Assembly (NCBI GenBank): GCA_039586095.1
Contig: JBDHLB010000003.1
Coordinates: forward strand, 66,945-130,944
DNA from: Gemmatimonadota bacterium
Lineage (GTDB): Bacteria; Gemmatimonadota; Gemmatimonadetes; Palauibacterales; Palauibacteraceae
DNA length: 64,000 bases
Reading direction: 5' to 3'
In this document: piece by piece, positions 3,710 to 56,630 of the stretch
How the letters are laid out: each line of letters begins with the position of its first letter
Position numbering within the stretch: the first letter of the stretch is position 1
Position numbers and translations under genes: made by a program
The notes under the pieces: model-generated
What the model was told of the DNA's origin: nothing
The model's input: the letters and a program-made list of their open reading frames with translations, nothing else
The model's database searches: none

Positions 3710-3763
3710 CGCGGACCAGGCCCACGGCCACCGACGGTCTTCACAGCTCTTGTGGGCATCTGT

Positions 3764-3784
3764 GGTACACCGTATTGGTGTACC
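3764..3784. promoter_or_regulatory. operator-like inverted repeat GGTACACC-gtatt-GGTGTACC abutting the ATG at 3785
   Basis: Perfect 8-bp arms with a 5-nt spacer, read directly from the sequence. It ends 1 nt before the start codon of an ORF whose N-terminus looks HTH-like. Confidence 0.4.
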
Positions 3785-5206: not shown

Positions 5207-7011
5207 GCGTCCTGCGAAGCGATCTCCGGCCGGGCGTCTACTGCGACTCGATCGTGCTCATGCAGCTCCAGAGTACGCTGGCCGACCTGCCGGGCGTGGA
5301 GGACGCCGGCGCCGTGATGGGGACGGACGACAACCTCGCGCTGCTCAAGGCCAACAAGCTGCTTCCGAAGGCGCTCCCGGCCGCGACCGGTCCCTCCGAT
5401 CTCGTGCTGGTGGTACGGGCCGAGAACGAGGAAGCGGCCACCGCGGCGCTCGGGAGGGTGGACGAGCTGCTGGCTCGCCGTCGCGCCACGGAAACCGGAG
5501 AGTTTCGCCCCCGGACGCTCACCTCGGCCGCCAGGCAACGGCCGGACGCCCGGTGGGTGCTCGTCTCCGTGCCGGGTCGCCACGCGGCGAGGGTCGCCCG
5601 CCAGGCCCTCGACTTGAACCGGCACGTTTTCCTGTTCAGCGACAACGTGCCGTTGGACCAGGAGATCGAGCTGAAGCGATCGGCCCGGGAACGCGGCCTG
5701 CTGGTGATGGGGCCGGACTGCGGCACGGCCATTCTGAACGGTGTCGGCTTCGGCTTCGCGAATCGGGTGCGACGCGGTGGAATCGGCCTGGTAGCGGCCT
5801 CCGGGACGGGGCTTCAGGCGATCTCCACCCATGTGCACGCGGCCGGCGCCGGCGTGTCGCACGCGATCGGGACCGGCGGTCGTGACCTGTCGGCGAAAGT
5901 GGGTGCAATCACTGCCATCCAGGGGCTCGAGCTCCTGTCCCGGGATCCGGAAACGCGAGTGATCGTGCTCGTCTCGAAGCCTCCGGCACCCGAGGTGACC
6001 GGCAAGGTTCTGGCAGTGGCCGGCGCGACCGGCAAGCCCGTCGTGCTCTACTTCCAGGGCGACGCTCCTTCTCTGACCGGAGAAGGCAACCTGCACGTCG
6101 CCACCAGTCTCCGTGAAGCGGGCGAACGGGCGCTGGAGCTACTGGATAACGAGGCGACTGCGCGGGGCGCTTCCGCCCCACCCGTCGTCAGGCTCAAGCC
6201 AATCGCTGACGGGTCCCCATCGTCTCTGTCGGCTGAAGCGGGAGGCGCGGGCGGCTGCCTGCGGGCTCTGTTCGCCGGCGGTACGCTGGCGTCCGAGGCG
6301 GTGCTCATGCTGCGCGATCTGGTGCCGCTCAGATCCAACATCGCAGCCGAACGCGTCGAGCCACTGCCTGAGCCGGGCCGCAGCCTCGGGCACACGATTC
6401 TCGACCTGGGCGCGGATGAGTTCACGGTGGGGCGGCCCCACCCGATGATCGACCATGACTTGCGGATCCGACGGCTCGAGCAGGAGACGGACGACCCCGA
6501 GGTGCGCGTTGTACTGTTGGATGTCGTGCTCGGTGATGGCGCGCATCCCGATCCCGCCAGCGCCTTGGCCCCGGCGATCGAATCGGCTGCGCACAGGCCG
6601 GACCTTGACATCGTGGCGCTGCTCATCGGGACCGACGAAGACCACCAAGACATCGAGATGCAGGCCGACATTCTGTCACGAGCAGGCGCGCACGTGCGAT
6701 ACGATCTCGGAGAAGCGCTCTCTCTCGTGCGCGACACGCTCGGCGCAACTGGCGCCGAAAGCGCCAGGCCCGGGACACAGCCACCACTGAGACGCACCGC
6801 CGCCTGCGAGACGGCACCGCCCACGCCTGCAACCCACCCCGTCGACCTGGCCGACCTGCAGGCGCCCGTGAGCGCGATCAACGTGGGGCTCGAGTCGTTC
6901 TACGAGAGTCTACTCGCTCAGGACGCCAAGGCGATCCACGTCGACTGGAGGCCGCCGGCGGGAGGCGACGAGACGCTGATGGCGATTCTCGACAAGATGC
7001 GGCTGCGATAG
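5203..7011 (+). CDS. fdrA: FdrA family protein (succinyl-CoA-synthetase alpha-like)
   Basis: N-terminus LRPGVYCDSIVLMQLQS...GTDDNLALL, then a CoA-ligase-like core (LVSVPGRHA..., GPDCGTAILNGVGFGFAN, VAASGTGLQA). ATGA overlap with the upstream ORF. Confidence 0.8.
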   Translation: MSVLRSDLRPGVYCDSIVLMQLQSTLADLPGVEDAGAVMGTDDNLALLKANKLLPKALPAATGPSDLVLVVRAENEEAATAALGRVDELLARRRATETGEFRPRTLTSAARQRPDARWVLVSVPGRHAARVARQALDLNRHVFLFSDNVPLDQEIELKRSARERGLLVMGPDCGTAILNGVGFGFANRVRRGGIGLVAASGTGLQAISTHVHAAGAGVSHAIGTGGRDLSAKVGAITAIQGLELLSRDPETRVIVLVSKPPAPEVTGKVLAVAGATGKPVVLYFQGDAPSLTGEGNLHVATSLREAGERALELLDNEATARGASAPPVVRLKPIADGSPSSLSAEAGGAGGCLRALFAGGTLASEAVLMLRDLVPLRSNIAAERVEPLPEPGRSLGHTILDLGADEFTVGRPHPMIDHDLRIRRLEQETDDPEVRVVLLDVVLGDGAHPDPASALAPAIESAAHRPDLDIVALLIGTDEDHQDIEMQADILSRAGAHVRYDLGEALSLVRDTLGATGAESARPGTQPPLRRTAACETAPPTPATHPVDLADLQAPVSAINVGLESFYESLLAQDAKAIHVDWRPPAGGDETLMAILDKMRLR

Positions 7012-7049
7012 GGGCCTAGGCCCCAGCAGCAGTCAGGGAGGAGACACGC

Positions 7050-8291
7050 GTGAACATAGAACAGGCGAATCGCACTGCGGTGGACCGGATGATGGCCGCC
7101 CGGCCGATCCTCACGACCGTCTCCACGGCACTGGACGCCATTCCCGGTATGCACGACCGATTGCTTCTGCACGCCGGCCCACCGATCGAATGGGAACGCG
7201 CCTCCGGCCCGCTGCGCGGAGCGATGATCGGAGCGTTGCTGTTTGAAGGCCTGGCCGAGGATGAGGCGGAAGCCGTCGCCGCGATCGAAGGCGGAGAGAT
7301 CGAATGGGAGCCCTGTCACCACCATCAGGCCGTCGGTCCGATGGCCGGCGTCACCTCGCCTTCCATGGCGGTGTACGTGGTCGAGAACGTGACCGACGGC
7401 AACGTGGCCTTCTCGAACCTGAACGAGGGTTACGGGAAAGTGCTGCGCTATGGTGCATACAGCCCGGATGTGCTGGACCGGCTGCGCTGGATGAACCAGG
7501 TGTTGGCCCCCGTCCTGGCCGACGCGCTGGCCGAGGGCGAGGGGCTCGACCTGCGAGCGTTGCTTGCAGAGGCCCTTCACATGGGTGACGAAGGCCACAA
7601 CCGGAACAAGGCCGGCTCGCTGATTTTTCTGAAACTCCTCGCGCCCCTCATCGCGAAGACGGCGGCCGACAGCACGGTGGAAGCGGAGGTGCTGAGCTTT
7701 TTGGGTGACAACGCGCTCAGCGTGCTCAACCCCGTGATGGCGGCCTGCAAGAGCATGGCGGACGCGGCCCACGGGATAGAAGGAAGCACCGTCGTAACAA
7801 CGATGGCCCGCAACGGGACCGACTTCGGGATTCGGGTGAGCGGCCTCGGCGACCGGTGGTTCACGGCCCCTTCGGCCACCCCCGATGGCCTGTACTTCAC
7901 GGGGTACACGGCGGCCGACGCGAACCCCGACATAGGAGACAGCACGATCACCGAGACAGCCGGGAGCGGCGGCTTTGCCATGGCCTCGGCGCCGGCCATC
8001 GTGAGCTTCGTGAGCGGGACGCCGCAGGACGCGTTACACGCCACGCTCGAGATGTATGAGATCTGCGAGGCCGAGCACGAACACTTCACGATCCCGCCAC
8101 TCGACTTTCGGGGTACGCCGACGGGGATCGACATCCGCAAGGTCGTAGAGCTGGATCTGCCGCCCCGCGTCAACACGGGGATCGCGCACCGCGAGCCCGG
8201 CGTCGGCCAGATTGGCGCGGGCCTGGTACGGCCGCCGATCGAGCTCTTCAGGCAGGCGCTCTTGGCGTACGCGGAGCATTACGGCCCGTGA
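7050..8291 (+). CDS. DUF1116 family protein (YlbE/YahG-like)
   Basis: GTG start preceded by GGGAGGAG. Recognised by overall resemblance to the DUF1116 partners of FdrA (HAGPPIEWERASGPLRGA..., HNRNKAGSLIF...). Lies directly downstream of fdrA. Confidence 0.7.
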   Translation: MNIEQANRTAVDRMMAARPILTTVSTALDAIPGMHDRLLLHAGPPIEWERASGPLRGAMIGALLFEGLAEDEAEAVAAIEGGEIEWEPCHHHQAVGPMAGVTSPSMAVYVVENVTDGNVAFSNLNEGYGKVLRYGAYSPDVLDRLRWMNQVLAPVLADALAEGEGLDLRALLAEALHMGDEGHNRNKAGSLIFLKLLAPLIAKTAADSTVEAEVLSFLGDNALSVLNPVMAACKSMADAAHGIEGSTVVTTMARNGTDFGIRVSGLGDRWFTAPSATPDGLYFTGYTAADANPDIGDSTITETAGSGGFAMASAPAIVSFVSGTPQDALHATLEMYEICEAEHEHFTIPPLDFRGTPTGIDIRKVVELDLPPRVNTGIAHREPGVGQIGAGLVRPPIELFRQALLAYAEHYGP

Positions 8292-8414
8292 TCTGACGGA
8301 TTTCCTGACACCACAGTGCCGGGCGGAGCCCACGTCCAGGCACGGTGTAGCCCCACATCACTCACGATCAAACTCGAGCGGAAACTCCTGCGGGGGAGAG
8401 GGAAACCAGGCAAC

Positions 8415-9851
8415 ATGGCGGAATCCGCACACAGCGACTCGACCGAAGCCGAGAGCGGCCGCAGGGTGAAGCTGCCGGTGCACATGCCGCCGGCCTTTCA
8501 TCTGCTGGCCAAGCCCACCGGTGCGCAGTGCAACCTCGACTGCGCGTACTGTTTCTTCCTCGACAAGGAACTGCTGTATCCCGACAGCCGCTTCCGCATG
8601 TCGGACGAGATGCTGGAGGGCTACATCCGCCAGCTGATTGAGTCCCATCAGACGAATCAGGTGACCGTGGCCTGGCAGGGGGGCGAGCCGACCCTGATGG
8701 GACCGGCCTTTTATCGCCGGGCGATGGAGCTCGAGGAGAAGTACCGTCGCCCCGGGATGACCTTCCTGAACACCATGCAGACGAACGGCACGCTGCTCGA
8801 CGACGAGTGGTGCGAACTGTTCAAGGAGCACGACTTCCTGATCGGGCTCAGCATCGACGGACCGGGCTGGCTGCACGACATCTACCGGCTCGACAAAGGC
8901 GGGCAGCCGACGTTCGACAAGGTCATGCGAGGCTTGCGGCTGCTGCAGAAGCACGAGGTCGAGTACAACCTCCTCACCACCGTCAACCGGGCTAACGGAG
9001 ATTACCCGCTGGAGGTCTATCACTTCCTGCGTGACGAGGCCGGCACCGACTGGATCCAGTTCATCCCGGTCGTGGAGCGCATCGACGAGACCGGCCGGGC
9101 GCTATGCCAGGAGGGATCGACCGTTTCCGATCGCTCGGTCGAGCCGGAGCAGTTCGGCCATTTCCTGAGCACGATCTTCGACGAGTGGGTCCGCAACGAT
9201 GTCGGCAAAGTCTACATCCAGACGTTCGAAGCGGCGTTGAGGAACTGGCTCGGAATGGACTCGTCCGGCATGTGCGTCTTCAACGAGACCTGCGGGGTGG
9301 GGCTGGCCATCGAGCACAACGGAGACCTCTACGCCTGTGACCATTTCGTGGAGCCGAACTATCACCTGGGCAACATCCAGGACGTGCACATGTCCGAAAT
9401 GGTCGCCTCGGATCAGCAGCTGAAGTTCGGTCAGGACAAGCGGGACACGCTGCCGCAGTATTGCCTGGATTGTGATGTGCGCTTCGCCTGCCACGGCGAG
9501 TGTCCGAAGAACCGTTTCACGCTGACCCCGGATGGGGAGCCCGGGCTGAACTACCTGTGTGCGGGATTCAAGCACTTCTTCCACCACGTCGACTTCCCGA
9601 TGAAGATCATGGCGGGTCTCTTGCGCCGACAACGGCCGGCCACGGAGGTGATGCAGATACTGGCGGCGGAGGAAGCCAAGCTGGCCGCGGCGGTGGCGCA
9701 GGCGGGTCGCAACGATCCCTGCCCGTGCGGCAGCGGACGCAAGGTCAAGAAGTGCCACGGCTTGCCCGAATCCGAGCGGGAACCGAAGCGACCCAGACGG
9801 CCGCTTCCAGAGCCGCAAAAGCGCTCCGATTCGATCGCGACAGCGACCTAG
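8415..9851 (+). CDS. anaerobic sulfatase-maturating enzyme family (radical SAM/SPASM) with C-terminal SEC-C motif
   Basis: CNLDCAYCFF radical-SAM cluster motif, GGEPTL, and SPASM cysteines (CDHF...CLDCDVRFACHGECPKNRF). C-terminal CPCGSGRKVKKCHG. ATG 8415 is preceded by GGGGAGAGGG. Confidence 0.85.
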   Translation: MAESAHSDSTEAESGRRVKLPVHMPPAFHLLAKPTGAQCNLDCAYCFFLDKELLYPDSRFRMSDEMLEGYIRQLIESHQTNQVTVAWQGGEPTLMGPAFYRRAMELEEKYRRPGMTFLNTMQTNGTLLDDEWCELFKEHDFLIGLSIDGPGWLHDIYRLDKGGQPTFDKVMRGLRLLQKHEVEYNLLTTVNRANGDYPLEVYHFLRDEAGTDWIQFIPVVERIDETGRALCQEGSTVSDRSVEPEQFGHFLSTIFDEWVRNDVGKVYIQTFEAALRNWLGMDSSGMCVFNETCGVGLAIEHNGDLYACDHFVEPNYHLGNIQDVHMSEMVASDQQLKFGQDKRDTLPQYCLDCDVRFACHGECPKNRFTLTPDGEPGLNYLCAGFKHFFHHVDFPMKIMAGLLRRQRPATEVMQILAAEEAKLAAAVAQAGRNDPCPCGSGRKVKKCHGLPESEREPKRPRRPLPEPQKRSDSIATAT

Positions 9852-32174: not shown

Positions 32175-34844
32175 ATGCCCGATACGACGCCAGCCTGCGA
32201 ACCTCACAAGATCAAGACGGTTCGGCCGGTCTCCTTCCCGACGCTCGAGCAGCGAAAGCAGTATCTGGCCGACGCCCGCTTCAACGTGTTCAACCTCAGA
32301 CCGAGCCAGGTGAGCTTCGACATGTGCTCGCTCGGCACGAGCGCCTCGAGCCAGGAGCAGCTGGCGGGCCAGGTGATCGGCGACGAGGCGTACGCGGGCA
32401 GCCGCAACTTCGAGAACCTCCAGAAAGCGGTACGCGAGGTGCTGGGCCACGGCTACGTGTGCCCGACCCACAACATCCTGGGCTGCCTCAAGCTTCTCGT
32501 GTCCACGCTGGTGCCGCCCGGCTCCGTGCTGGCCAGCAACTCCAGGGATCGCGTCGACGTGCTCACGCCGCGGGAAGTCCGGGTTCGGGACGTGCGGGAC
32601 CCTGACGAGCCCGTGTTCACGGGCAACATGGAGCTGGGGAAGCTGGAGGAGGTTCTGGAAGAAGGGGGCGTGGCGCTGGTCGACTGCCACGCCTTCGCTG
32701 ACGGGCAACATCCCTTCAGTCTCGCCAACCTGCGGGCCGCACGCGTGCTCGCCGACCGCTTCGGAGTGCGTCTGGTTGTCGATGGATCCCGGGTGATCGA
32801 GAACGCCTGGTACATCCAGCGTCACGAGCCGGGCCAGGCGGACCGCACGATTGCCGACATCGTTCAGCAGATCGTGAAGACCAGCCACATCCTGCAGCTC
32901 GACGGTGCCCAGGATCCCAAGTGCAACACGGGCGGGCTGCTCAGCACGGACAATCCGGACGACTACGAGAAATTCATGAACGAGGTGGTCGTCTTCGAGG
33001 GGCTGCACACGTACGGCGGAATGGCGGGGCGCACGATGGAGGTGCTGGTGCGCGGCCTCCGTGAGATGTGCGATGAAGAGGAAGTTCGCTGGGTGATGCA
33101 CCAGACGGAGCGATTCACGCGGCGGCTGCGCGAGGCGGGCGTTCCGCTCGAGCGGGGGTGTGACGGCGCGTACATCATCGCTGACGAGCTCCTTCCACAC
33201 GTGGGCGACCGGGCGAAGGACACCTTCTCGGCAGCGCTATACCTCATCTCAGGGGTGCGCGCCGTGGCGCCCCACCTGACCGGACGAAGCGACCCCGTTC
33301 CCGTTCAGATTCCGCGGCTCGCGATGACCAACGAGCAGCTGGATCAGGTGGCCGACGCCATCGTGAGTCTCCTGCACCAGCGCGACGAGGTACCGCCGCT
33401 TCAGCCCACTTCGATCGGCCAGTGGCGGGACGAGATGGAGTATCACTGGGTGCTTCCCGACCTGGAGCCGTTCGAGTTCGACACCTTTCCGTTCGAGATC
33501 CACACGATCGAGCGGGTGGGCGTGTTGACGCGCGACCAGCGCGAACGGGCCATGCGCATGGCCGGCTACAACACGTTCCTGCTCCGTTCTGCCGACGTGA
33601 CGATCGATCTGCTGACCGACTCGGGTACGAGCGCCATGAGCGTGGACCAGTGGTCCGATTACGAAGGGGTGCGTGCGAGCGCGACGACGAGTGACGAGTA
33701 CTTCCGGCTGGTCGATGTTCTGCAGGAAGCCTTCGGATACGAGCACATCATCCCGACCCACCAGGGACGGGCCGCCGAGCACATCCTGAGCCAGATCATG
33801 ATCGAGCCCGGGCAGCTCGTTCCCGGCAACATGTACTTCACCACCACCAAGCTGCATCAGGAGCTGGCCGGTGGCGTGTTCGTCGATGTGATCGTGGACG
33901 AAGCGAAGGACCCGCAGAGCGACCATCCGTGGAAGGGCGACATCGACCTGGCCAAGCTCCACGCGCTGGTGGACGAGCACGGCGCCGACAAGATCGCCTA
34001 CGTTTCGTTCGAGCACTCCGTGAACATGGCCGGCGGCCAGCCGGTCAGCATGGACAACATGAAGGACGTGTACGCCTACTGCGGTGACGTCGGCATCCCC
34101 GTCTTCTTCGACGCCACCCGCGTCGTCGAGAACGCCTACATGATCCAGAGCCGCGACGCGCGCTACGCCGACACTCCGATTCGGGACATCCTGCGCGAGA
34201 TGATGCTCTACGGGGACGGTTGCACCGTGAGCGGCAAGAAGGACTTCCTCATCAACATCGGCGGGGTCCTCGCGTTCCGGGAGAACGAGGAATGGACCCG
34301 GAAGGCCGAGGATCTGCTGCGCATCTACGAAGGGAACGTGACGGACGGCGGCCTCGCCACGGCCGACCTGGCGGCGATCGCGCGTGGCGTCGAGGAGATG
34401 GTCGATGATCGGTACATTCGGGCCCGGGTCGGACAGACCCAGCGGCTCGGGGAGATGTTGCTCGAGGCAGGGGTGCCGATCGTCACGCCGCCCGGCAGCC
34501 ACGCGATCTTTCTCGATGCGAAACGCTTCCTGTCCCACATCGACCAGGATGAGTTCCCCGCCCAGCGGTTGGCTGCGGAGGTGTTCATCGAGACGGGCGT
34601 GCGCGCGATGGAGCGTGGGAACGTCTCGAAGGGGCGGAATCCGGAGACGGGGGAGAACTACCGTCCGGCGCTGGAGCTCGTGAGGCTGACCATCCCAAGG
34701 CGCGTGTACACGAACGATCACATGCGCGCGGTCGCCGACGGAATCATCCGGCTGTACGAGCGCCGGGAGCAGATCAAGGGACTGCGCTTCGTCTACGAGC
34801 CCGACAAGCTCCGCTTCTTCCAGGGGCGATTCGAGTCGCTGTAA
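32175..34844 (+). CDS. tandem beta-eliminating lyase (tryptophanase/tyrosine phenol-lyase-like) fusion, 889 aa
   Basis: C-terminal half has DLLTDSGTSAM, IPTHQGRAAEHI, TVSGKKDFLINIGG and RLTIPRRVYT. The N-terminal half has the same fold-length pattern but THNILGCL and LDGAQDPKCNTGG. Confidence 0.85.
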   Translation: MPDTTPACEPHKIKTVRPVSFPTLEQRKQYLADARFNVFNLRPSQVSFDMCSLGTSASSQEQLAGQVIGDEAYAGSRNFENLQKAVREVLGHGYVCPTHNILGCLKLLVSTLVPPGSVLASNSRDRVDVLTPREVRVRDVRDPDEPVFTGNMELGKLEEVLEEGGVALVDCHAFADGQHPFSLANLRAARVLADRFGVRLVVDGSRVIENAWYIQRHEPGQADRTIADIVQQIVKTSHILQLDGAQDPKCNTGGLLSTDNPDDYEKFMNEVVVFEGLHTYGGMAGRTMEVLVRGLREMCDEEEVRWVMHQTERFTRRLREAGVPLERGCDGAYIIADELLPHVGDRAKDTFSAALYLISGVRAVAPHLTGRSDPVPVQIPRLAMTNEQLDQVADAIVSLLHQRDEVPPLQPTSIGQWRDEMEYHWVLPDLEPFEFDTFPFEIHTIERVGVLTRDQRERAMRMAGYNTFLLRSADVTIDLLTDSGTSAMSVDQWSDYEGVRASATTSDEYFRLVDVLQEAFGYEHIIPTHQGRAAEHILSQIMIEPGQLVPGNMYFTTTKLHQELAGGVFVDVIVDEAKDPQSDHPWKGDIDLAKLHALVDEHGADKIAYVSFEHSVNMAGGQPVSMDNMKDVYAYCGDVGIPVFFDATRVVENAYMIQSRDARYADTPIRDILREMMLYGDGCTVSGKKDFLINIGGVLAFRENEEWTRKAEDLLRIYEGNVTDGGLATADLAAIARGVEEMVDDRYIRARVGQTQRLGEMLLEAGVPIVTPPGSHAIFLDAKRFLSHIDQDEFPAQRLAAEVFIETGVRAMERGNVSKGRNPETGENYRPALELVRLTIPRRVYTNDHMRAVADGIIRLYERREQIKGLRFVYEPDKLRFFQGRFESL

Positions 34845-42427: not shown

Positions 42428-43029
42428 GTGCGTCGAGGCAAGCCCATGAGTACTCAGAGCGGGAGCGGACTCAGCCGGTCGGGCGAGGATTACCTGAAGG
42501 CGATCTACGCGCTTCAGACGTCGTGCGGCGGCCCCGCCCAGACCAGCGCCATCGCGAACGCCCTCGAGGTGGCGCCTCCGTCGGTGAGCGGCATGGTCAA
42601 GCGCCTCTCCGACGCGGGCCTGCTCGAACACATCCCCTACCGTGGTGTGCGGCTCACGGTTGAGGGGCGACGGGCGGCGCTGCGCATGATGCGCCGGCAT
42701 CGGATCCTGGAGACCTACCTGACCACCAAGCTCGGGTACGACTGGGACTCGGTGCACGCCGAAGCCGAGCGTCTCGAGCACTGCCCGAAGGCAGCACCGC
42801 GGAGCTTCGGATGGTGAGCGACAAGGACGCCGAGCGCCTGCGGTACATCGGCTCCCTGGGGCTTCGGCCCGGGACGGAGTTCGAGATCGCGGCGCGCCAG
42901 CCCTTCAACGGACCGGTCACGATTCGTCTGAAGCGGGAGCCGGGTGACGGCGAACACGAGCAGGCGATCGGGCACGAGCAAGTGATCGGACACGAGCTCG
43001 CACGATCGCTTCTGTGCGTGGAGGACTGA
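42428..43029 (+). pseudogene. DtxR/MntR-family metalloregulator split across two reading frames
   Basis: Frame A (42428-42817) encodes the wHTH and dimerisation domain up to HAEAERLEH, then 11 unrelated aa and a stop. Frame B (42811-43029, open further upstream) encodes a FeoA/SH3-like C-terminal domain (ELRMVSDKDAERLRYIGSLGLRPGTEFEI...). Confidence 0.6.
42955..42996 (+). repeat. 18-nt tandem repeat, about 2.3 copies (CACGAGCAGGCGATCGGG / CACGAGCAAGTGATCGGA / CACGAG)
   Basis: Read directly from the sequence. Encodes HEQAIG-HEQVIG-HE near the C-terminus of the split regulator. Confidence 0.8.
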
Positions 43030-43030
43030 C

Positions 43031-44146
43031 GTGGTTCACCCCGGAATAGCCCTGTTGATCTTCGCGGTCGTGGTGACCCTGCTCGTCGTGCTGTTCTGGC
43101 CGACCCGCGGCCTGGTGCCGCGGCTCGCTCGCTACCGTCGCGTCACCGACCGTGTGCTTGCCGAGGACACGCTCAAGCACCTGTACAACTGCGAGTATGC
43201 GGGGACTCCGGCCACGGAGGAGAGCCTGGCGGGCGCCCTCGAGACATCCAGGCACGAGGCCGTCGGGCTGCTGAATCGTCTCCAGGAGCTCGAGTTCGTG
43301 CAGGTGGAAGGTGAGCGCGCGACACTCACCGACGAGGGTCGGCGCTATGCCCTGCGCGTGCTTCGCAGCCATCGCTTGTGGGAGACCTACCTTGCCGAGC
43401 GAACGGGCGTGGCGCCCAGCGAGTGGCACGCCCAGGCCGATCGCAAGGAGCACGTGCTGACGGGCGAGGAGGCGGAAGGCCTGGCTTCCCGTCTGGGCTA
43501 CCCCCTCTACGACCCTCACGGGGATCCGATCCCCACAGCCGCCGGGCGTGTCCCGCCCGCCCGAGGCATGCAGCTGACCGCCATCGAGCCCGGTCAGGCG
43601 GCTCGGATCATCCATCTGGAAGACGAGCCCGCCCAGCTGTTCGAAGCCATCGTCGGCGCGGGTCTGGGGCCGCTCATGTCCATCCGCCTGCTCGAGGCGA
43701 CGCCGTCGGCCGTGCGCGTCGAGGCGCAGGGGGTGGAGCACGTTCTCGACCCGGCCGTGGCCAGTCGTATTACCGTCGAACCGGTGGATGAGGAGACGGC
43801 GGAAGGCCCCACCGAGACACTGGCCGATCTGGACGAAGGCGAGCGCGGCTGGGTGGTCGGAATCTCCCGTCTGTGCCAGGGGCCGGCCCGCCGTCGCCTG
43901 CTGGATCTGGGTGTGGTGCCGGGCACGCTCGTGCGAGCGGAGCTGATGAGCACGGGCGGCGACCCGGTGGCCTACCGGATTCGCGGCGCCCTGATCGCGT
44001 TGCGCGACGACCAGGCATCGCTGGTCCGCATCGAGCGTGTGCCTGCCGACGAGCAGGCCGCCGCTTCGGATCGGCATGCGGCGGACGCGGTGGGGATCGG
44101 ATCGAGCGAGAGCGATCGCCTCCCACTCGAAGGCAGGGATGGCTAG
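43031..44146 (+). CDS. membrane-anchored DtxR-like domain fused to two FeoA domains
   Basis: N-terminal helix GIALLIFAVVVTLLVVLFWP. LRSHRLWETYL, H-x3-D-x2-EH, DPHGDPIP. Two SH3-like FeoA repeats. Stop overlaps the feoB start. Confidence 0.75.
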   Translation: MVHPGIALLIFAVVVTLLVVLFWPTRGLVPRLARYRRVTDRVLAEDTLKHLYNCEYAGTPATEESLAGALETSRHEAVGLLNRLQELEFVQVEGERATLTDEGRRYALRVLRSHRLWETYLAERTGVAPSEWHAQADRKEHVLTGEEAEGLASRLGYPLYDPHGDPIPTAAGRVPPARGMQLTAIEPGQAARIIHLEDEPAQLFEAIVGAGLGPLMSIRLLEATPSAVRVEAQGVEHVLDPAVASRITVEPVDEETAEGPTETLADLDEGERGWVVGISRLCQGPARRRLLDLGVVPGTLVRAELMSTGGDPVAYRIRGALIALRDDQASLVRIERVPADEQAAASDRHAADAVGIGSSESDRLPLEGRDG

Positions 44147-46404
44147 CATGGCGCGCACGGCGGCTCCCTGCCACGGCTGCGCAGCGAACCGCGAGGAAGC
44201 GCTGGTCCAGCTCGGCATCAGCCCCGACCGTTTCGACTACCTGGTCGCTCTCGCTGGAAACCCGAACACGGGCAAGAGCACCGTGTTCAATGCGCTCACG
44301 GGCCTGCGACAGCACACCGGGAATTGGCCGGGGAAGACGGTGGCGCGCGCCGAGGGCACCTACGGGGAGGACGAAGACCGCTTCAAGGTGGTCGATCTGC
44401 CCGGGACGTACTCTCTCCAGGCCGGGAGCCCCGACGAGGAGGTCGCTCGCGATTTTGTGCTGTTCGGGCGGCCGGACGTCACCGTCGTGGTGGTCGATGC
44501 GACCCGCCTCGAGCGGAACCTGAACCTCGTGCTGCAGATCCTCGAGATCACGGATCGGGTGGTCGTGTGTCTGAACCTGATGGACGAGGCCCGCCGGCAC
44601 GGCATCGCCGTCGACGAACGCAAGCTGGAGAAGGAGCTCGGCGTGCCGGTCATCCCGAGCGTGGCCCGGAGCGGCACGGGCATTCCGGAGCTGCGAGATG
44701 CGATCCGAAGGGTAGCTACGGGCGAGATCACCCCCGAGCCGTTTCGCATTGCAGAGTATCCGTCAGAGGTCGAACGAGCGCTCACCGAGCTGGTGCCCCT
44801 CGTACAGGACGCGTATCCGGAGCTGCCGAACGCCCGCTGGGTGAGCCTGCGCCTCCTGAACGCGGATCAACGGGTGGCCGACGCGGTGCGATCGGGTGAG
44901 ATCGGCCTGCTGGACTCCGACGATGCCGCGCTTGCCGTCGCCTGGTCGTCCGGTCGAGGCGGCGCGAGCCGGGCTTCGACGGCCGGCCCCCTGGCGGGCC
45001 CGGCCACCGGTCACGTCTCGAGGGAGCGCCACGCCCTCGACACAGGCGGGCCCGAGCTCCAGGGAAGCCAGGGAAGCGGGGGTGTCGCGGTCGCGGAGCC
45101 GTTTCCGGCGGTCGACTCGCTGGAGGCCGTCGGGCGGGTCGTGCTCGACCGGGCCGCCGCGCTCCGCTGGAAACTGAGCCCCGACTTTCATGACGCGCTG
45201 ATGGGGCGGTTCTACGAGGCAGCGCACGCGATCGCCGATCGTTCCAGTGCGGTCGGTCTGAGGAAGGCGAAGTTCGACCTGGATCGGACCCTGGACCGCC
45301 TGCTCACGAACCGCTGGCTCGGCTATCCGGTCATGCTGTTCATGCTGGCGGCCGTGTTCTGGATCACGATATCGGGTGCCAACGTCCCGTCGGGCCTTCT
45401 CGCGACGCTGCTCATCGACAACGTGCATCCGATGCTGCTCTCGTTCGGCGCCGGCCTGGGACTTCCCGGCTGGCTGAGCGGCCTCCTGTTCGACGGCGTG
45501 TACCTGGCGACAGCGTGGGTCGTGGCGGTGATGCTGCCGCCGATGGCCATCTTCTTCCCGCTCTTCACGCTGCTGGAGGACTTCGGCTACCTGCCGCGCG
45601 TCGCCTTCAACCTGGACAGCCTGTTCCGGCGGGCCGGCGCCCACGGAAAGCAGGCGCTCACCATGTGCATGGGCTTCGGCTGCAACGCTGCGGGCGTGGT
45701 GTCGACTCGGGTGATCGACAGCCCTCGCGAGCGGCTGATCGCGATCATCACGAACAACTTCTCGCTATGCAACGGGCGCTGGCCGACCCAGATCCTGCTG
45801 GCCACGATCTTCGTGGGGGCTCTGGTGCCGGCCCATCTGGCCGGTCTCGTGTCGGCGACGGCCGTGGTCGGCGTGGCGCTGCTGGGCGTCTTCGCGATGT
45901 TCGTCGCCTCGTGGCTCCTTTCCCGTACGATGTTGCGGGGCGAGGCAACCACCTTCAGCCTCGAGCTGCCCCCGTACCGGCCGCCACGGCTTCTTCAGAC
46001 GTTGTACACGTCGATCATCGACCGGACGCTGATCGTTCTGTGGCGCGCGGTCGTCTTCGCGGCGCCCGCGGGTGCCGTGATCTGGCTTGTCTCCAACATC
46101 TCTGTCGGTAATGCGAGTCTGGCGGAGCACTTCATCTCGTGGGCGAATCCGTTCGGGATCCTGCTCGGGCTGAACGGCGTGATCCTGCTGGCCTACGTGG
46201 TCTCGGACTGCAGGCTGGACGGCGCTCACAGGCATCAACGTCATGTTGTTCAGCTTGCTCCACAATCCGTGCTCCACGACCCTGTACACGATCTACCGGG
46301 AGACGGGAAGCGCGAAGTGGACCGTCGTATCGGCCCTCCTCCCGCTGGTCATGGGCTTCACGCTGTGCTTCGTGGTGGCGCAGGTATGGCGCTGGGTGGT
46401 CTAA
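44139..46404 (+). pseudogene. feoB: ferrous iron transporter FeoB, frame-disrupted near 46200-46215
   Basis: G domain GNPNTGKSTVFNALTG...DLPGTYSL. Membrane domain runs to ...[13 protein letters not shown] in one frame. The conserved C-terminus [36 protein letters not shown]... is in the +1 frame and ends with TAA at 46402-46404. The span is 2266 nt, not a multiple of 3. Confidence 0.7.
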
Positions 46405-46778
46405 GAGCGCCTCGAAGACAGCTCTTTGATTCGCATCAACTGCCCGGCGATCTCATCCACTGCTTTGTCGAGCGAGACCCCCAGCGCGGGGTCTACAGGA
46501 CCGACGGCCGCCAGAGAGGAAGAGCGGCAGTCGAGCACTCGCGTCCACCACACCGCCGACCAGAACTGCAGCTGATCGAGCGCGTCACGTTCCCTCACGG
46601 CCAGCGCGAGATCGAACCGCTGCGCGATGCCCTCGATCAGCTCGGCCAAGCGTCCCAGCTCCGCCCGAATGTCCTCTGCGGCCGGCTCGGCCTCCACCTG
46701 CCGCTCCAGTTCCTGCGCTTCCTCGAGCAAGCGACCGAACCGTACGGACAATCGCCGGCTTTGGCTTTCTCTCAGCAT
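46401..46778 (-). CDS. hypothetical helical protein
   Basis: ORF with plausible composition ([29 protein letters not shown]...). No family recognised. Converges on and overlaps the feoB stop. Confidence 0.4.
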
Positions 46779-46828
46779 CCCTGCCTCGGGTCCATCCCTG
46801 CCTCGGATCGTTTTCGGGTTCGGCGAGA

Positions 46829-47251
46829 CTACTCGCCCACGAGTGCGACGGCCACGCGGCGTTTGCGGGGCCGCGTGTCGAAATCCAGCAGGACGACCTG
46901 CTGCCACGTGCCCAGTGGGACTTGCCCGTCGACGATCGGCAGCGCGAGCGAGGGGCCGATCAAACAGGCCCGAACGTGGCTGTGTCCGTTGTCATCGTGC
47001 CAGGTCTCCTCGTGCTCGTAACGACCATCCCGCGGAGCAATCCCTTCGAGGGCAGCCGAGATGTCGTGATGTACGAGCCCCGGTTCGTACTCGAGCGTAG
47101 AGAGCGCACCCGTCGAGCCGACGACCATCGCCGTGAGCTGCCCGCACTGAATTCCGCTCTGGCGTACGACCGTCTGCAATTCGGCCGTCAGATCCAGGAT
47201 GTGGTCGTCACCCTGCGTGTCGCGCGTAAGCATATGGCTATGAGTGATCAT
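46829..47251 (-). CDS. yjbQ: YjbQ/UPF0047 family protein
   Basis: DITAELQ...GQLTAMVVGSTGALSTLEYEPG...HVRACLIGPSLALPIVDGQVPLGTWQQVVLLDFD. Confidence 0.85.
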   Translation of the reverse strand: MITHSHMLTRDTQGDDHILDLTAELQTVVRQSGIQCGQLTAMVVGSTGALSTLEYEPGLVHHDISAALEGIAPRDGRYEHEETWHDDNGHSHVRACLIGPSLALPIVDGQVPLGTWQQVVLLDFDTRPRKRRVAVALVGE

Positions 47252-50905: not shown

Positions 50906-52290
50906 AGGACGCCAGGGTCGGACTCGTGTATCGTTTGCGCGTGTTGGCGAGTGTGCTCCTTCTGGCCGTCCTTGCCGTCCTCGCGGTTCCGGGTTCGCGA
51001 CAGGCTGGTCTGACGGCCCAGGCTGGCGACCAGCAGCCGCCCGCGACCCCGGAGACCGGCAGCGTCATCTTCTTCCATCCGGACGGGATGGGGGTGAACA
51101 CCTGGACCGCGCTCCGTCTGCTCGAGGCGGGGCCCGATGGCCGCCTTAGCTGGGATCGTCTTCCGGCCATGGCCGTCTACACCGGACACCTCACCGACGC
51201 GGTGACGGCCACGTCGAACGCGGGTGCCACGATCCATGCGTACGGAGTGAAGGTGCCTGCCAACAGCTTCGGGTTGAACGACTCGGAGCCTATCGTGGCT
51301 CGCTCCGGTCGGCCCGAGAGCATCCTTCTCGAGGCACAGGAGGTCGGCTACGCAACCGGCCTGGTGAACAGCGGCACGATCACCGAGCCGGGCACCGGAG
51401 CGTTCTGTGCGCGCGTTGTGGAGCGGACCAATCATGCCGAGATCGCCCTGCAGATTCTGGACGCCGGTCCGGAGGTGATTCTGGGTGGAGGCGAGCGCTA
51501 CTTCCTCCCGACGGGCGCCGAGGGCGTTCACGGGGTCGGAGCCCGGGCCGACGGCCGCGACCTGGTCGCCGAGGCACGCGCCCGCGGATACGCGGTGGTT
51601 TACACACGGCAGCAGTTGGAGGCGCTCCCCGACACGGTCTCTCGCGTGCTGGGCCTCTTCGCCTCCAACCACACGTTCAACGCGCGTTCGGAGGCGGCCC
51701 TCGAGGAGGCCGGTCTGCCCCCGTACGCCGAGATCGCTCCCAGCATCGGCGAGATGACCCAAGCCGCGCTGGCGGTCCTGTCCCGATCGGACCGCAACTT
51801 CCTGCTCGTCATCGAGGAGGAAGGGACCGACAACTTCAGCAACGCGAACAACGCCTACGGTACGATGGAGGCGGGGCGGCGGGCCGACGAGGCCATCGCG
51901 GTGGTCCTCGAGCACCTCGCCGGCGATCCGACGGCCCTGCTGGTGGTGACATCCGACAGCGATGCAGGAGGTCTTCAGGCGATCGGCTCGACGGAGGGGT
52001 GGCTCAAGCCGGATGCTCCGTTGCCCGAGCGGGACTTGAACGGGGCGCCCATGGACGGCGCACTCGGGACGGCTTCGCCACCCTTCCTGTCCGCACCGGA
52101 TCGTGCGGGCAACCGCTGGCCGTTCGCGATCGCCTGGGCGACGCTGCGGGATGCGAGTGGGGGTGTCCTGGTCCGTGCCGCCGGAATGAACGCGGACCTC
52201 GTGTCCGGCACGCTGGATTCGACGGACATCTACGCCGTGATGTATCAAACGCTGTTCGGACGTCCGCCGGACACTACGGACGAACCATGA
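50902..52290 (+). CDS. alkaline phosphatase-fold protein (divergent PhoA-like)
   Basis: Signal peptide. FHPDGMGVNTW and TSNAGATIHAYGVKV align to PhoA GDGMG and DSAASATAWSTGVKT (from memory). Several downstream metal-ligand positions look substituted. Confidence 0.65.
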   Translation: MKDARVGLVYRLRVLASVLLLAVLAVLAVPGSRQAGLTAQAGDQQPPATPETGSVIFFHPDGMGVNTWTALRLLEAGPDGRLSWDRLPAMAVYTGHLTDAVTATSNAGATIHAYGVKVPANSFGLNDSEPIVARSGRPESILLEAQEVGYATGLVNSGTITEPGTGAFCARVVERTNHAEIALQILDAGPEVILGGGERYFLPTGAEGVHGVGARADGRDLVAEARARGYAVVYTRQQLEALPDTVSRVLGLFASNHTFNARSEAALEEAGLPPYAEIAPSIGEMTQAALAVLSRSDRNFLLVIEEEGTDNFSNANNAYGTMEAGRRADEAIAVVLEHLAGDPTALLVVTSDSDAGGLQAIGSTEGWLKPDAPLPERDLNGAPMDGALGTASPPFLSAPDRAGNRWPFAIAWATLRDASGGVLVRAAGMNADLVSGTLDSTDIYAVMYQTLFGRPPDTTDEP

Positions 52291-52532
52291 AGATGCCCCC
52301 TGAGGGACAACCAGGCGGGAGACCGAGAATGCACACGGTGACGTTGAAGATAGAAGGTATGAAGTGCGATGGTTGCGCGACCGCCGTCCGTTCGGCTCTG
52401 GAAGGCGTCGAAGGGGTCAGCGCTGTCGACGTGTCGCTGCCCGATGGCTCCGCGAGCGTGCAGCTGGAGCCTTCCGTCGACCGGAGCGTGTTGGTCGACG
52501 TGATCGCCGAGGCCGGCTACCAGGCGGTCTGA
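52287..52532 (+). CDS. heavy-metal-associated (HMA, CopZ-like) domain protein
   Basis: VTLKIEGMKCDGCATAVRSALEGVEGV. ATGA overlap with the upstream gene. An alternative start is ATG 52329. Confidence 0.8.
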   Translation: MKMPPEGQPGGRPRMHTVTLKIEGMKCDGCATAVRSALEGVEGVSAVDVSLPDGSASVQLEPSVDRSVLVDVIAEAGYQAV

Positions 52533-52623
52533 GCCCGGCAGTTAGCCCTGCAGATGGTCCAGAGCCCGGCAGACGGTCCGGGGACCGGCCGCCAGGCCAA
52601 ACCACTTCAGCGGGGCAGCCGCC

Positions 52624-53148
52624 CTAGCGAGTCTCGTAGATCTGAGTGTTCCCCTCGTCGTCGAACAGCAGGACGCTGTAGGGTTCCTGCTTGCCCCCGA
52701 CTTCCATACCCGGGGATCCGACCGGCATACCGGGCACCGCCAGACCGGCCGCGGCAGGCCGCTCTTCCAGCAACCGGGCGATCACGTCCGCCGGGACGTG
52801 ACCTTCGACGATGTAGCCATCGATCACGGCCGTGTGGCAGGAGGACAGCCGAGCCGGTACGCCAAGCTCGGCCTTCTTCTCAGTCAGCTGCGCATCCGAG
52901 ACATTCTCGCTCTTGACTTCGAACCCGCTCTCCTCGAGGTGCCTGACCCAGGCACCGCAACACCCTCAGGTGGGGCTCTTGTAGACGACGATTTCCGCGT
53001 CGCTCAGATCGGACGCCGTGGCCATCTCGACGGCCTGAGAGGAGCTTCCGTCGGCCGAGGCCTCTCCACCGCATCCGGCCACGATCACGGCCAACACTGC
53101 CGCGACCCAGTGGCTGGCGGGCAGCCCTTTCGTACCGCGAACTCTCAT
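52624..53148 (-). CDS. DUF411/CopG-family copper-binding protein with one in-frame TGA (52966-52968) at the first Cys position of the CxCC motif
   Basis: GAGGAG upstream of ATG 53148. Lipobox VAGCGG. VVYKSPT-TGA-GCCGAWVRHLEESGF...SSCHTAVIDGYIVEGHVP...GLAVPGMPVGSPGME... The frame is otherwise uninterrupted to TAG 52624-52626. Confidence 0.7.
52938..52956 (-). other. SECIS-like hairpin 10 nt downstream of the in-frame TGA
   Basis: mRNA reads UGA GGGUGUUGC GGUGCCU-GGGUC-AGGCACC. Perfect 7-bp stem, 5-nt loop containing GGUC. Extendable by G-C, U-G and U-A pairs after one C/U mismatch. Confidence 0.45.
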
Positions 53149-53331
53149 GGTGCGCTCCTCTCGGTCTCGGTTGCCGGCAGTGTCCGTAGACGCCCAAGAT
53201 GACGGCCGTCGTCCGCAGCGCAACTACCCGGGTGTGTCGGGGGAGTGCCTCGGCCGGAAGGGCGAGAGCAGCGGGCCGGCGCGTCAGTGGTCACGGCGGC
53301 ACAAGCGGAGTTCGAAGAGGTACACGTAGCC

Positions 53332-54486
53332 ATGGATTTTCTCGGGATCAAGATTTCGGCAGCGGATGTCCAGCTGTGGCTGGAGCAGGCGTGGGCGTTC
53401 GCGGGTCCGCGTCTGCTGACAACCGTCGGTATCGCGGGCGGCGCCTTCGTGGCGTACTGGATCGGCAAGCGGGTACTCGATCGCGTCTGTCGGCTCGTGA
53501 CCCGCACCGCGTCGAGAATAGACGACATGGTCGCCCGGCTCGTACAGCGGACGTTCGTGATGTCCGTCATCTTCTGGACCATCTGGAGGCTCACGTATAT
53601 CTGGACGATGACCGTAGCCGCGGACTTCGTCGCCGCCGCGTGGATCGTCGCCTTGAGCCTGCCCGCCGGCCAGTTCGTGGTCGATCTCATGACCCTCGTC
53701 GAGCGTCGGTTGGTCACCCGGACCGCGACCGCGCTCGACGATACGGCGCTCCCGATGATCAACAAGGTGATCCGATTCCTCGTCATCGGCCTGGGCGTGC
53801 TCCTGGCTCTGCAATACCTGAACGTGAATGTCGCGCCGCTGATGGCCGGCGCCGGCGTCGCCGGGCTGGCCGTATCGCTGGCTGCCCGGGACACGCTCTC
53901 CAACCTGATCGCAGGCGTGCTGCTGATCATCGACCGACCGTTCCACGTCGGCGACCGGATCGAGCTGTGGAGCGCGCCTCTGGAGACGGGGACGTGGGGA
54001 GACGTGGTGGAGATCGGATTGCGGGCGACGACCATCCGCAATCCGGATAACCTCATCATGGTAATCCCGAACAACGAGATCATGCGGCGCGACATCGTGA
54101 ACTACACGGCATCGGGCTCACACATCCGGTTGCGGATTCCGATCGGGATCGCGTTCGACGCGGACGAGAACCTGGCTAAGGAGCTCATCCTGCAGGCAGC
54201 TCGCGAAACCGAGGGCGTCAAGGAGACACCCGACCCATTGGTCATCGTTCGCAGTTTCGGGCAATCGGAGGTGCAGCTGCAGCTCCGGGTGTGGATCAAG
54301 CAGGCCAGAGAGCGGCGAGCGATCTCGGATGCGATCACCGGCCGCGTGCGTCAGCTGTTCCAGGAGCACGGAGTCGAGATTCCGTACCCGAAGCGCGATA
54401 TCTACGTCCGATCGGTTCCCCCATCGGGGACGGCGGCCGCGCCCGAGTCACGCCCCGACGCGCCGGGCGGAGAGCCCTGGGAGTGA
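53332..54486 (+). CDS. mechanosensitive ion channel family protein (MscS-like)
   Basis: AGVAGLAVSLAARDTLSNLIAGVLLIIDRPFHVGDRIEL...GDVVEIGLRATTIRNPDN. Confidence 0.85.
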   Translation: MDFLGIKISAADVQLWLEQAWAFAGPRLLTTVGIAGGAFVAYWIGKRVLDRVCRLVTRTASRIDDMVARLVQRTFVMSVIFWTIWRLTYIWTMTVAADFVAAAWIVALSLPAGQFVVDLMTLVERRLVTRTATALDDTALPMINKVIRFLVIGLGVLLALQYLNVNVAPLMAGAGVAGLAVSLAARDTLSNLIAGVLLIIDRPFHVGDRIELWSAPLETGTWGDVVEIGLRATTIRNPDNLIMVIPNNEIMRRDIVNYTASGSHIRLRIPIGIAFDADENLAKELILQAARETEGVKETPDPLVIVRSFGQSEVQLQLRVWIKQARERRAISDAITGRVRQLFQEHGVEIPYPKRDIYVRSVPPSGTAAAPESRPDAPGGEPWE

Positions 54487-55919: not shown

Positions 55920-56630
55920 TCAGGCGGCCTGTCCCTTCTCCTCGTCGGTCGGACAGTACAGGTCCCGTCGGCGCTCCAGATCGTGCGCCACCGCCGCCTT
56001 GAAGCCTCGCTCGCCCGCCTCCGCCAGCAGCTTCTCCCGGTAGGCGGCGATGTCTATGAGTTCCAGTCGCAGCCGTGCCGTCCGAAAGAGGCGTGGGAAC
56101 CGCTCCCCCGGGGCATGGATGTGGTGCAGGCCCCCGCTGTAGACCATGAGCATGTCACCGCTCGGGATACCGAGCAGGATGTCGGCGATGCCCCCGCGCA
56201 CCGTCATCGGGTGGCCGTGAAGATCCAGTCCGGTGGGCCGCTTCATACGCCCTTCGGGCATGATGACGATCAGCGCATCCGGGTCGTCGATTCGCTTCAG
56301 AACCTCCGTCCACGTGTGGTCCCGGGCGCGGGTGATCGATACCACGTTGTGCCCGACCAGGCGAAAGAAGCGGCCGACGAACGGTCGGGCCAGCGTCTTC
56401 TGGGCCACAGGGACCACACCACTCCGAGACATCTTTCGGAGCAGCTGGTTGGGCGCGGCACCGACGAAGATCGGTTCGAAGAGACTCGTGTGGTTGAGCA
56501 GAGCCATGACACGGAGGTTCTCCCACGGGACCTCCGGCTCCGCTTCGATCCATTGCCGATCGAAGCGCCAGAAGACCTTGCTCGCGCACTTGATGAGCAA
56601 GAGAAGCAGATATACAAGGTAGCTGCGCAT
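55920..56630 (-). CDS. lysophospholipid (PlsC-like) acyltransferase
   Basis: ALLNHTSLFEP (an HX4D-type variant with E) and VIMPEGRM motifs. N-terminal hydrophobic helix. Confidence 0.7.
   Translation of the reverse strand: MRSYLVYLLLLLIKCASKVFWRFDRQWIEAEPEVPWENLRVMALLNHTSLFEPIFVGAAPNQLLRKMSRSGVVPVAQKTLARPFVGRFFRLVGHNVVSITRARDHTWTEVLKRIDDPDALIVIMPEGRMKRPTGLDLHGHPMTVRGGIADILLGIPSGDMLMVYSGGLHHIHAPGERFPRLFRTARLRLELIDIAAYREKLLAEAGERGFKAAVAHDLERRRDLYCPTDEEKGQAA

Follow-up and report, generated by a model that had tools for sequence, protein, structure and literature searches.

CopG is a periplasmic thioredoxin-like protein that holds a tetranuclear copper cluster through a CxCC motif and two methionines; it contributes to copper resistance and has been proposed to oxidise Cu(I) or to transfer copper to multicopper oxidases (PMC7558416). 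Selenocysteine (Sec), which usually marks catalytic redox sites in catalogued selenoproteins, occurs in other thioredoxin-fold proteins with a UxxC motif, among them Sec-thioredoxin, Sec-glutaredoxin and the DsbA-like and Prx-like thiol:disulfide oxidoreductases (PMC13188914). Predicted selenoproteins that handle metals include Sec-containing CopZ-family 2Fe-2S proteins, an E1-E2 cation ATPase with UxxC, the SO_0444 Cu/Zn efflux transporter with UxC, a YHS-domain protein and a MerT-like protein (PMC13188914). In the 64,000-nucleotide stretch of a Gemmatimonadota genome analyzed here (contig JBDHLB010000003.1, positions 66,945 to 130,944; the window, numbered from its first letter), a complete gene of the CopG family (DUF411, PF04214) at 52624..53148 on the minus strand carries an in-frame TGA at the codon of the first cysteine (Cys) of CxCC. 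Translation of this codon as Sec is very probable because the TGA, the full downstream frame and an adjacent hairpin recur across many phyla. The gene, referred to below as Sec-CopG, would thus be a member of a large, apparently uncatalogued U-G-C-C subfamily of CopG. A sequence-only reading of the window had proposed that the UGA is recoded as Sec within CxCC, and the proposal is supported by the Cys homologues, by the conservation of the UGA and the frame, and by a hairpin specific to the TGA forms.

The gene comprises 174 codons and a TAG stop. The minus-strand frame, read from the sequence, runs from the ATG at 53148-53146 to the TAG at 52626-52624 with the TGA at codon 61 (52966..52968) as its sole interruption, and a Shine-Dalgarno-like GAGGAG (53155..53160, minus strand) lies upstream of the ATG with a 6-nucleotide spacer. 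The N-terminus resembles a signal peptide (...AAVLAVIVAG-C26). This lipoprotein-type leader of residues 1-26 (53071..53148, minus strand), ending in the lipobox VAG-C26, is located wholly 5' of the TGA, and the hydrophobic leader together with the lipobox predicts an extracytoplasmic lipoprotein. The translation reads ...IVVYKSPT-[TGA]-GCCGAWVRHLEE...SSCHTAVIDGYIVEGHVP...PGMPVGSPGME.... Alignment to the solved CopG structure 6WIS shows that the U-G-C-C motif of codons 61-64 (52957..52968, minus strand) is the counterpart of the C-x-C-C motif that forms the copper-cluster site of CopG (PMC7558416). The UGA occupies the first position of the motif, and the second and third Cys are encoded by ordinary codons. 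The sequence-only reading had described the GAGGAG, the lipobox, a frame with no break but the TGA, and the position of the TGA exactly at the first Cys, all of which held on re-reading. TGA is also the commonest stop in the window, terminating 20 of the 39 open reading frames (ORFs) supported by third-position G+C; the genetic code is therefore standard.

Family searches with a Cys placed at codon 61 assigned the window protein to Pfam DUF411 (PF04214) with E = 2.3e-27 and 94.9 bits, compared with a cut-off of 27 bits. The structure 6WIS was matched at E = 3e-32, with residues 53-168 of the query aligned to residues 5-117 of the chain (113 residues). The solved domain thus extends across the TGA, and the same thioredoxin-like fold is predicted for the window protein. 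All the named homologues read C-G-C-C (YKSPT-C-G-C-C) at the position of the window TGA. The Pfam DUF411 core, residues 101-148 (52705..52848, minus strand), holds C104-H105-T, E-G-H117-V-P and P-G-M141-P-x-G-S-P-G-M148. These motifs, at residues 104-106, 115-119 and 139-148, are all located 3' of the TGA and are invariant (the last as P-G-M-P-x-G-x-P-G-M) in 220 homologues. The earlier statement that the sequence past the TGA stays family-like to its natural stop is thus borne out by an intact core and intact ligand motifs. In comparison with CopG of P. aeruginosa (PF04214, PDB 6WIS/6WJE), the window protein has the domain and the positions of x-G-C-C, C-H-T, E-G-H-V-P and P-G-M-P-x-G-S-P-G-M in common, and it is likewise predicted to be targeted outside the cytoplasm. 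It differs in that the first Cys of CxCC is encoded as UGA followed by a SECIS-like hairpin (SECIS, selenocysteine insertion sequence), and in that the protein is a predicted lipoprotein. Two metagenomic proteins of the family, P0001 (279 residues) and P0121 (230 residues), contain tandem DUF411 domains, each with a C-x-C-C of its own where the motif is present.

The species representatives of GTDB were scanned with a DNA pattern for Y-K-x-P-[S/T]-TGA-G-C-C, and at least 120 loci matched, compared with ~17 chance matches estimated for the whole collection under equal base frequencies. Translation through the TGA showed that 116 of the 120 matches listed are DUF411 genes and four are chance matches. 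Thus, at least 116 DUF411 genes carry TGA at the first-Cys codon, in at least 115 species-representative assemblies from more than ten phylum-level groups. Past the TGA, the frame of the 116 genes continues for ~110 residues through ...W-V-x-H-L...S-C-H-T-A...E-G-H-V-P...P-G-M-P-x-G-S-P-G-M-E... to a normal stop. According to the record titles of the matches listed, 48 of these genes belong to Acidobacteriota (mostly Vicinamibacterales), 32 to Gemmatimonadota, 14 to Chloroflexota, six to Methylomirabilota/Rokubacteria and 16 to other groups with one to three each. The other carriers are Myxococcota and other delta-proteobacterial bins, Binatia, Nitrospinaceae, Tectomicrobia, beta-proteobacteria, a Pseudomonadales bin, Verrucomicrobiota, a bin labelled Bifidobacteriaceae and three bins labelled uncultured bacteria. 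In a scan of metagenome contigs that allowed TGA, TGC or TGT at the first-Cys codon, 113 motif-matched DUF411 genes were found, with TGA in 20, TGC in 62 and TGT in 31, so that about one in six has TGA. One Vicinamibacterales contig (CBDBMZ010000003.1) carries two TGA-type DUF411 copies, L042 and L069, ~4.3 Mb apart.

For a codon-aligned comparison, 131 distinct TGA forms were set against 89 Cys forms. The pairwise identity among the TGA forms has a median of 54% and a minimum of 37%, and all the family-invariant motifs 3' of the TGA are retained in the 131 sequences. A rough neighbour-joining tree places the TGA forms in six to seven large pure clades and requires ~16 switches between Sec and Cys, compared with 69 when the labels are shuffled. 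These results bear on the alternative offered by the sequence-only reading, in which a recent nonsense mutation turned TGC into TGA and left a fresh pseudogene. A single base change from TGC would suffice for this, and no Sec machinery was found in the window. However, a fresh lesion does not account for 131 distinct orthologues of this divergence sharing the TGA with an intact frame and invariant motifs, for their large monophyletic clades, or for a position-specific hairpin that accompanies TGA and not TGC or TGT. Conservation across the orthologues refutes the alternative, and a nonsense mutation is highly improbable.

A sequencing or assembly error at the codon could be suspected because the window comes from a metagenome-type assembly and because a related contig, L243, is either chimeric or rearranged. 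However, the window locus was recovered in four other public assemblies, and in two of them (L241 and L242, independent JGI metagenome assemblies) the gene is identical over the covered part with the same TGA and flanks. More than 100 assemblies from unrelated projects and technologies share the codon, including closed long-read chromosomes of Vicinamibacterales (e.g. OY759970.1, OZ220736.1 and OY760734.1); OZ253576.1, OY760136.1 and OZ244976.1, closed or near-closed Vicinamibacterales genomes, have the TGA form as well. An error is thus extremely unlikely. Contig L243 (ENA ZHEN15-1 scaffold_70288) is identical to 51887-52924 of the window and unrelated from its nucleotide 1039 onward, in the middle of DUF411. 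At this junction the 3' two-thirds of DUF411 is fused in frame to an N-terminus that is RND-efflux-like by eye, and the contig represents either a chimera or a real rearrangement.

Public gene calls divide the gene at the TGA, into 60 and 67 residues in L242 and into 108-residue ORFs in relatives, as would be expected if translation stopped there to give a 60-residue peptide and a separate C-terminal DUF411 fragment were made from an internal start. The arrangement of the gene speaks against such split products. The solved CopG domain lies on both sides of the TGA (query 53-168), the C-terminal piece has neither the signal peptide nor strand beta-1 nor any of the CxCC motif, and the N-terminal piece consists of leader and linker only. 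The internal starts vary between relatives and are not conserved. A hydrophobic leader is present 5' of the TGA and in frame with it in 118 of the 125 TGA-type genes with a complete upstream region. Since the leader and the exported domain are located on opposite sides of the TGA, only read-through gives an exportable domain, and neither a pseudogene nor two separate products can explain the arrangement. Termination at the TGA with two products is therefore very unlikely.

The mRNA 3' of the UGA contains a SECIS-like hairpin at 52938..52956 (minus strand), corresponding to +13..+31 from the U of the UGA, with an 8-bp stem and the loop G21-G22-U23 (52948-52946). In an alternative form, the stem has 7 bp (GGUGCCU/AGGCACC) with the loop GGGUC and three further pairs past one mismatch. 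The minimum-free-energy structure from RNAfold has an extended lower stem with mismatches at 52932..52962 (minus strand; +7..+37). Folding confirmed the GGUGCCU/AGGCACC hairpin and its three additional pairs as first described from the letters alone, and corrected the distance from the UGA to the stem, given there as ten nucleotides, to nine between the A of the UGA and the first stem base. The published bacterial SECIS model requires a loop of 3-9 nucleotides with a G among its first two nucleotides, a stem of 4 bp or more, 16-37 nucleotides between the UGA and the loop, and a folding energy of -7.5 kcal/mol or lower (PMC13188914). A SECIS scan of this region had been recommended in the sequence-only reading, and the window hairpin agrees with the published model in all four respects (loop GGU, 8 bp, 17 nucleotides and -13.1 kcal/mol). 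Under a strict form of the model, 48 of the 131 TGA forms pass, the window among them, and none of the 89 Cys forms. Similar to the SECIS of E. coli fdhF and the bacterial consensus, the element is a stem-loop within the ORF directly 3' of the UGA, with a small loop that begins with G followed by G/U. It differs from them in having no sequence similarity or Rfam match, and its loop centers range from +22 to +27 by clade. The Rfam search of the whole window gave no match at gathering thresholds, around the hairpin only chance-level matches appeared at E<=10, and none of the curated models for a bacterial SECIS matched.

Comparisons of the Sec and Cys forms showed that the hairpin is specifically enriched in the TGA-type genes. 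The mean folding energy of +10..+48 is -11.5 kcal/mol in the TGA forms and -7.9 kcal/mol in the Cys forms, and the gap persists within G+C bins, where it amounts to ~2-3 kcal/mol in favor of the TGA forms. A hairpin with 7 or more uninterrupted base pairs is found in 79% of the TGA forms vs. 13% of the Cys forms. The difference remains when the comparison is confined to sequences with the amino-acid motif W-[VI]-x-H-L (85% vs. 20%) or to genes with a G+C content at third codon positions (GC3) above 0.75 (87% vs. 10%), and when the set is thinned to 65% identity (79% vs. 14%). The loop center is positioned at +22..+27 from the U of the UGA in 112 of 117 TGA-form hairpins, whereas it is scattered in the Cys forms. 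Base pairs are maintained through sequence changes. Pair 18-30 of the main Vicinamibacterales clade covaries at third codon positions, with A-U found 15 times, G-C 13 times, G-U three times and no unpaired case; pair 18-36 in another clade switches from C-G to G-C; and C18-G26 of the window corresponds to U18-A26 in its nearest relative (L007). A single consensus structure for all the TGA forms was considered and rejected, as the register of the hairpin shifts between clades and even within one. Differences in register between clades indicate that the feature, rather than its sequence, is conserved. The alignment of DUF411 homologues proposed in the sequence-only reading thus yielded both UGA-type and Cys-type orthologues, with the hairpin enriched among the former.

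Several observations weigh against the translation of codon 61 as Sec. The window hairpin taken alone is no stabler than its dinucleotide shuffles (z = -0.68; 66% G+C), and this single-sequence test, being not significant, was replaced by the comparison of the Sec and Cys forms. Resampling of synonymous codons did speak for the element, as the TGA forms fold significantly better than their resamples (mean z of -0.60, p 9e-9, a value that overstates independence, as do those of the other statistical comparisons, since the sequences are related), compared with -0.24 for the Cys forms and no signal in a downstream control region. However, this synonymous-site signal is modest, since much of the hairpin stability comes from amino-acid choice at variable positions, indicating that much of the stem is built via suitable amino acids. 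The Chloroflexota clade of 14 sequences (L003, L009-L011, L015, L017, L036, L037, L046, L047, L058, L065, L109 and L237) keeps the TGA and the frame without a compact hairpin or a consensus fold, and a hairpin of at least 7 bp is found in only 7% of it; this clade may use a different SECIS type. Every TGA carrier among the matches listed is a metagenome-assembled genome, with no cultured isolate. With respect to the decoding machinery, ARAGORN found no tRNA-Sec in the 64-kb window, whose one tRNA gene is for Arg, or in 240 related loci (1.6 Mb). Pfam searches found no selA, selB or selD among the 39 ORFs of the window, and motifs of SelD, SelB and SelA were not found in the six-frame translations of the 1.6 Mb of fetched loci.

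The same results bear on read-through of the UGA as an amino acid other than Sec, either as Cys through a tRNA(Cys) resembling tRNA(Sec) with a SelB-like factor, or as Trp or Cys through near-cognate decoding stimulated by the hairpin. Recoding of UGA to Cys by Sec-like tRNAs is reported from some bacteria. The conserved UGA, the hairpin and the Cys homologues would look identical under such decoding, and the genes for Sec synthesis were found neither in the window nor in the 1.6 Mb of related loci. However, Cys recoding would bring no gain over a TGC codon, yet the TGA is retained across many phyla, and the N-terminal position of a CxxC-like redox and metal motif in a thioredoxin fold is the typical Sec site of UxxC selenoproteins (PMC13188914). 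In addition, one host genome (Rokubacteria, L014, JACPCW010000027.1) contains a second gene with TGA and a hairpin that belongs to a known selenoprotein family. This AhpC/TSA-redoxin gene, on the minus strand at ~1110-1346 in plus-strand coordinates and 3 kb from the TGA-type DUF411 gene, carries the TGA at F-F-T-T-T-[TGA]-P-N-C followed by a strong hairpin. Its TGA falls on the UxxC site known from a catalogued family of selenoproteins (PMC13188914), and the redoxin is likely a selenoprotein of that family. Non-Sec read-through is accordingly judged unlikely, with a small residual chance. The C-terminal part of the L014 redoxin is encoded in a different frame, suggestive of a frameshift or of an error in assembly.

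Translation of codon 61 as Sec would proceed as follows. Translation of the mRNA would start at the ATG at 53148, and at the UGA the hairpin 9 nucleotides 3', with its loop GGU beginning 17 nucleotides past the UGA, would act as a bacterial SECIS. It would recruit SelB.GTP.Sec-tRNA(Sec), and Sec would be inserted in competition with release factor 2. Export of the resulting 174-residue precursor, with signal peptide and lipobox encoded 5' of the UGA, would be followed by anchoring at Cys26. The thioredoxin-like domain would then handle copper outside the cytoplasm via U61-G-C63-C64 and two conserved methionines, with Sec as the N-terminal member of the CxxC-equivalent pair U61...C64. A Sec at position 61 would be expected to have a lower pKa, to bind copper as a softer ligand and to make the redox center more reactive and harder to over-oxidise. 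Such chemistry would fit the interconversion of Cu(I) and Cu(II) or the copper transfer proposed for CopG. The window protein is thus envisaged as a membrane-anchored extracytoplasmic copper redox or transfer protein with a selenolate as its first ligand. It is a possible but rather doubtful further step that Sec-CopG is an undescribed, widespread selenoprotein family in which the tetranuclear copper cluster is directly ligated or bridged by the selenolate. If so, the site would be a Se-Cu cluster that occurs in nature, copper handling in the periplasm of dominant phyla of soil and sediment (Vicinamibacterales, Gemmatimonadota, Methylomirabilota and Chloroflexota) would depend on the selenium supply, and the presence of Sec would identify CopG as a catalyst of redox chemistry and not a passive chaperone.

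Comparisons with described selenoproteins indicate that Sec-CopG is in kind a further Cys-to-Sec thioredoxin-fold family with ordinary bacterial decoding and no new recoding mechanism. As in the UxxC selenoproteins, where helix 1 of a thioredoxin-like fold begins, Sec would take the place of the N-terminal Cys in a CxxC-type motif, the Cys homologues are far commoner, and a coding-region hairpin is located just 3' of the UGA. The UxxC selenoproteins are thiol-disulfide or peroxide oxidoreductases, whereas the U-x-C-C of Sec-CopG corresponds to a copper-cluster site. With the metal-handling selenoproteins it has in common the placement of Sec in a Cys-rich metal-binding motif of a protein for heavy-metal homeostasis. 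However, those proteins are unrelated to it in fold and family, no periplasmic copper-cluster protein is among them, and the catalogue reports none of them from Vicinamibacterales or Gemmatimonadota (PMC13188914). DUF411, PF04214, CopG and the UGCC motif are not among the 119 prokaryotic selenoprotein families catalogued in May 2026 (PMC13188914), and no model of NCBIfam release 20 (June 2026), the source of the models for selenoprotein annotation, matches the window protein. Both agree with the sequence-only reading, in which DUF411 is not known from selenoprotein lists. Within the searchable literature, full text holds nothing that links DUF411 with selenocysteine and nothing for PF04214, and searches for CopG with selenoprotein return mostly the eukaryotic gene COPG. 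Within these limits, Sec-CopG is very probably an unrecognised selenoprotein family.

The TGA forms are represented in public protein collections solely by truncated ORFs, which have 60, 67 or 108 residues. The window gene is stored as pieces of 60 residues (52969-53148) and 67 residues (52624-52827), and its Vicinamibacterales relatives (P0122, P0127 and P0138, kin of L001/L019) as unnamed 108-residue ORFs beginning 'MVHLQEHGF...', one cluster of which has 102 members. Such records conceal the signal peptide and the CxCC metal site and amount to a systematic annotation error. Sec-CopG is not rare, with at least 115 species-level assemblies that come mostly from uncultured lineages of soil, groundwater and sediment in which selenium use is little studied. 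A link between selenium and copper would mean that selenium availability could limit copper detoxification or delivery. Because Sec is usually catalytic, its recurrence at the first CxCC position favors the oxidoreductase view of CopG, and the natural Sec/Cys pairs of CopG are available for testing this view.

The genomic surroundings of the TGA-type genes are diverse, and no conserved neighborhood was found across the loci. P-type ATPases (near seven of 136 TGA loci and nine of 93 Cys loci) and multicopper oxidases (seven of 136 and six of 93) are the most recurrent neighbors, at similarly low frequency in both forms. Different from CopG, the window gene lies outside any cop/cus/cue cluster, and only an HMA gene adjoins it. 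This CopZ-like gene (52329..52532, plus strand) encodes a 67-residue metal-binding protein with MKCDGC (Pfam HMA, E = 1e-13) and is convergent with Sec-CopG. The copper context that the sequence-only reading had drawn from it stands as far as the gene is real, but the context is thin, as no other neighbor is copper-related. HMA adjacency to a TGA-type DUF411 gene occurs only in the window and in the Gemmatimonadota locus L007 among the loci compared. This synteny and the best DUF411 match make a Gemmatimonadota-like source of the window probable. The HMA protein is a possible functional partner of Sec-CopG. The other neighbors in the window encode MscS channels, an alkaline phosphatase, a Ser/Thr kinase and an amidohydrolase. 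An iron cluster at 42428-47021 (plus strand), 6 kb from the CopG gene, contains a DtxR-type repressor, FeoA, a repressor-FeoA fusion and FeoB. Metal-homeostasis genes are thus frequent around the CopG gene, although the others concern iron, not copper.

A scan of 52200-53400 found no promoters or terminators, and a scan of the window found no credible in-frame TGA gene besides CopG that would encode a second selenoprotein. The TGA at 55920-55922 (minus strand) ends an acyltransferase gene, and the ORF next to it, which shares its frame, opens with a hydrophobic segment; considered as a recoding site, this TGA was judged an ordinary stop between two adjacent genes. Elsewhere in the window, an 889-residue ORF at 32175-34844 (plus strand) has two matches to the beta-eliminating lyase family and resembles a tryptophanase/tyrosine phenol-lyase-like protein of unusual length or with a duplication. 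A radical SAM/SPASM protein with a C-terminal SEC-C motif is encoded at 8316-9851 (plus strand), where its gene adjoins AllG-like, CoA-ligase and phosphopantetheinyl-transferase genes (3752-8291).

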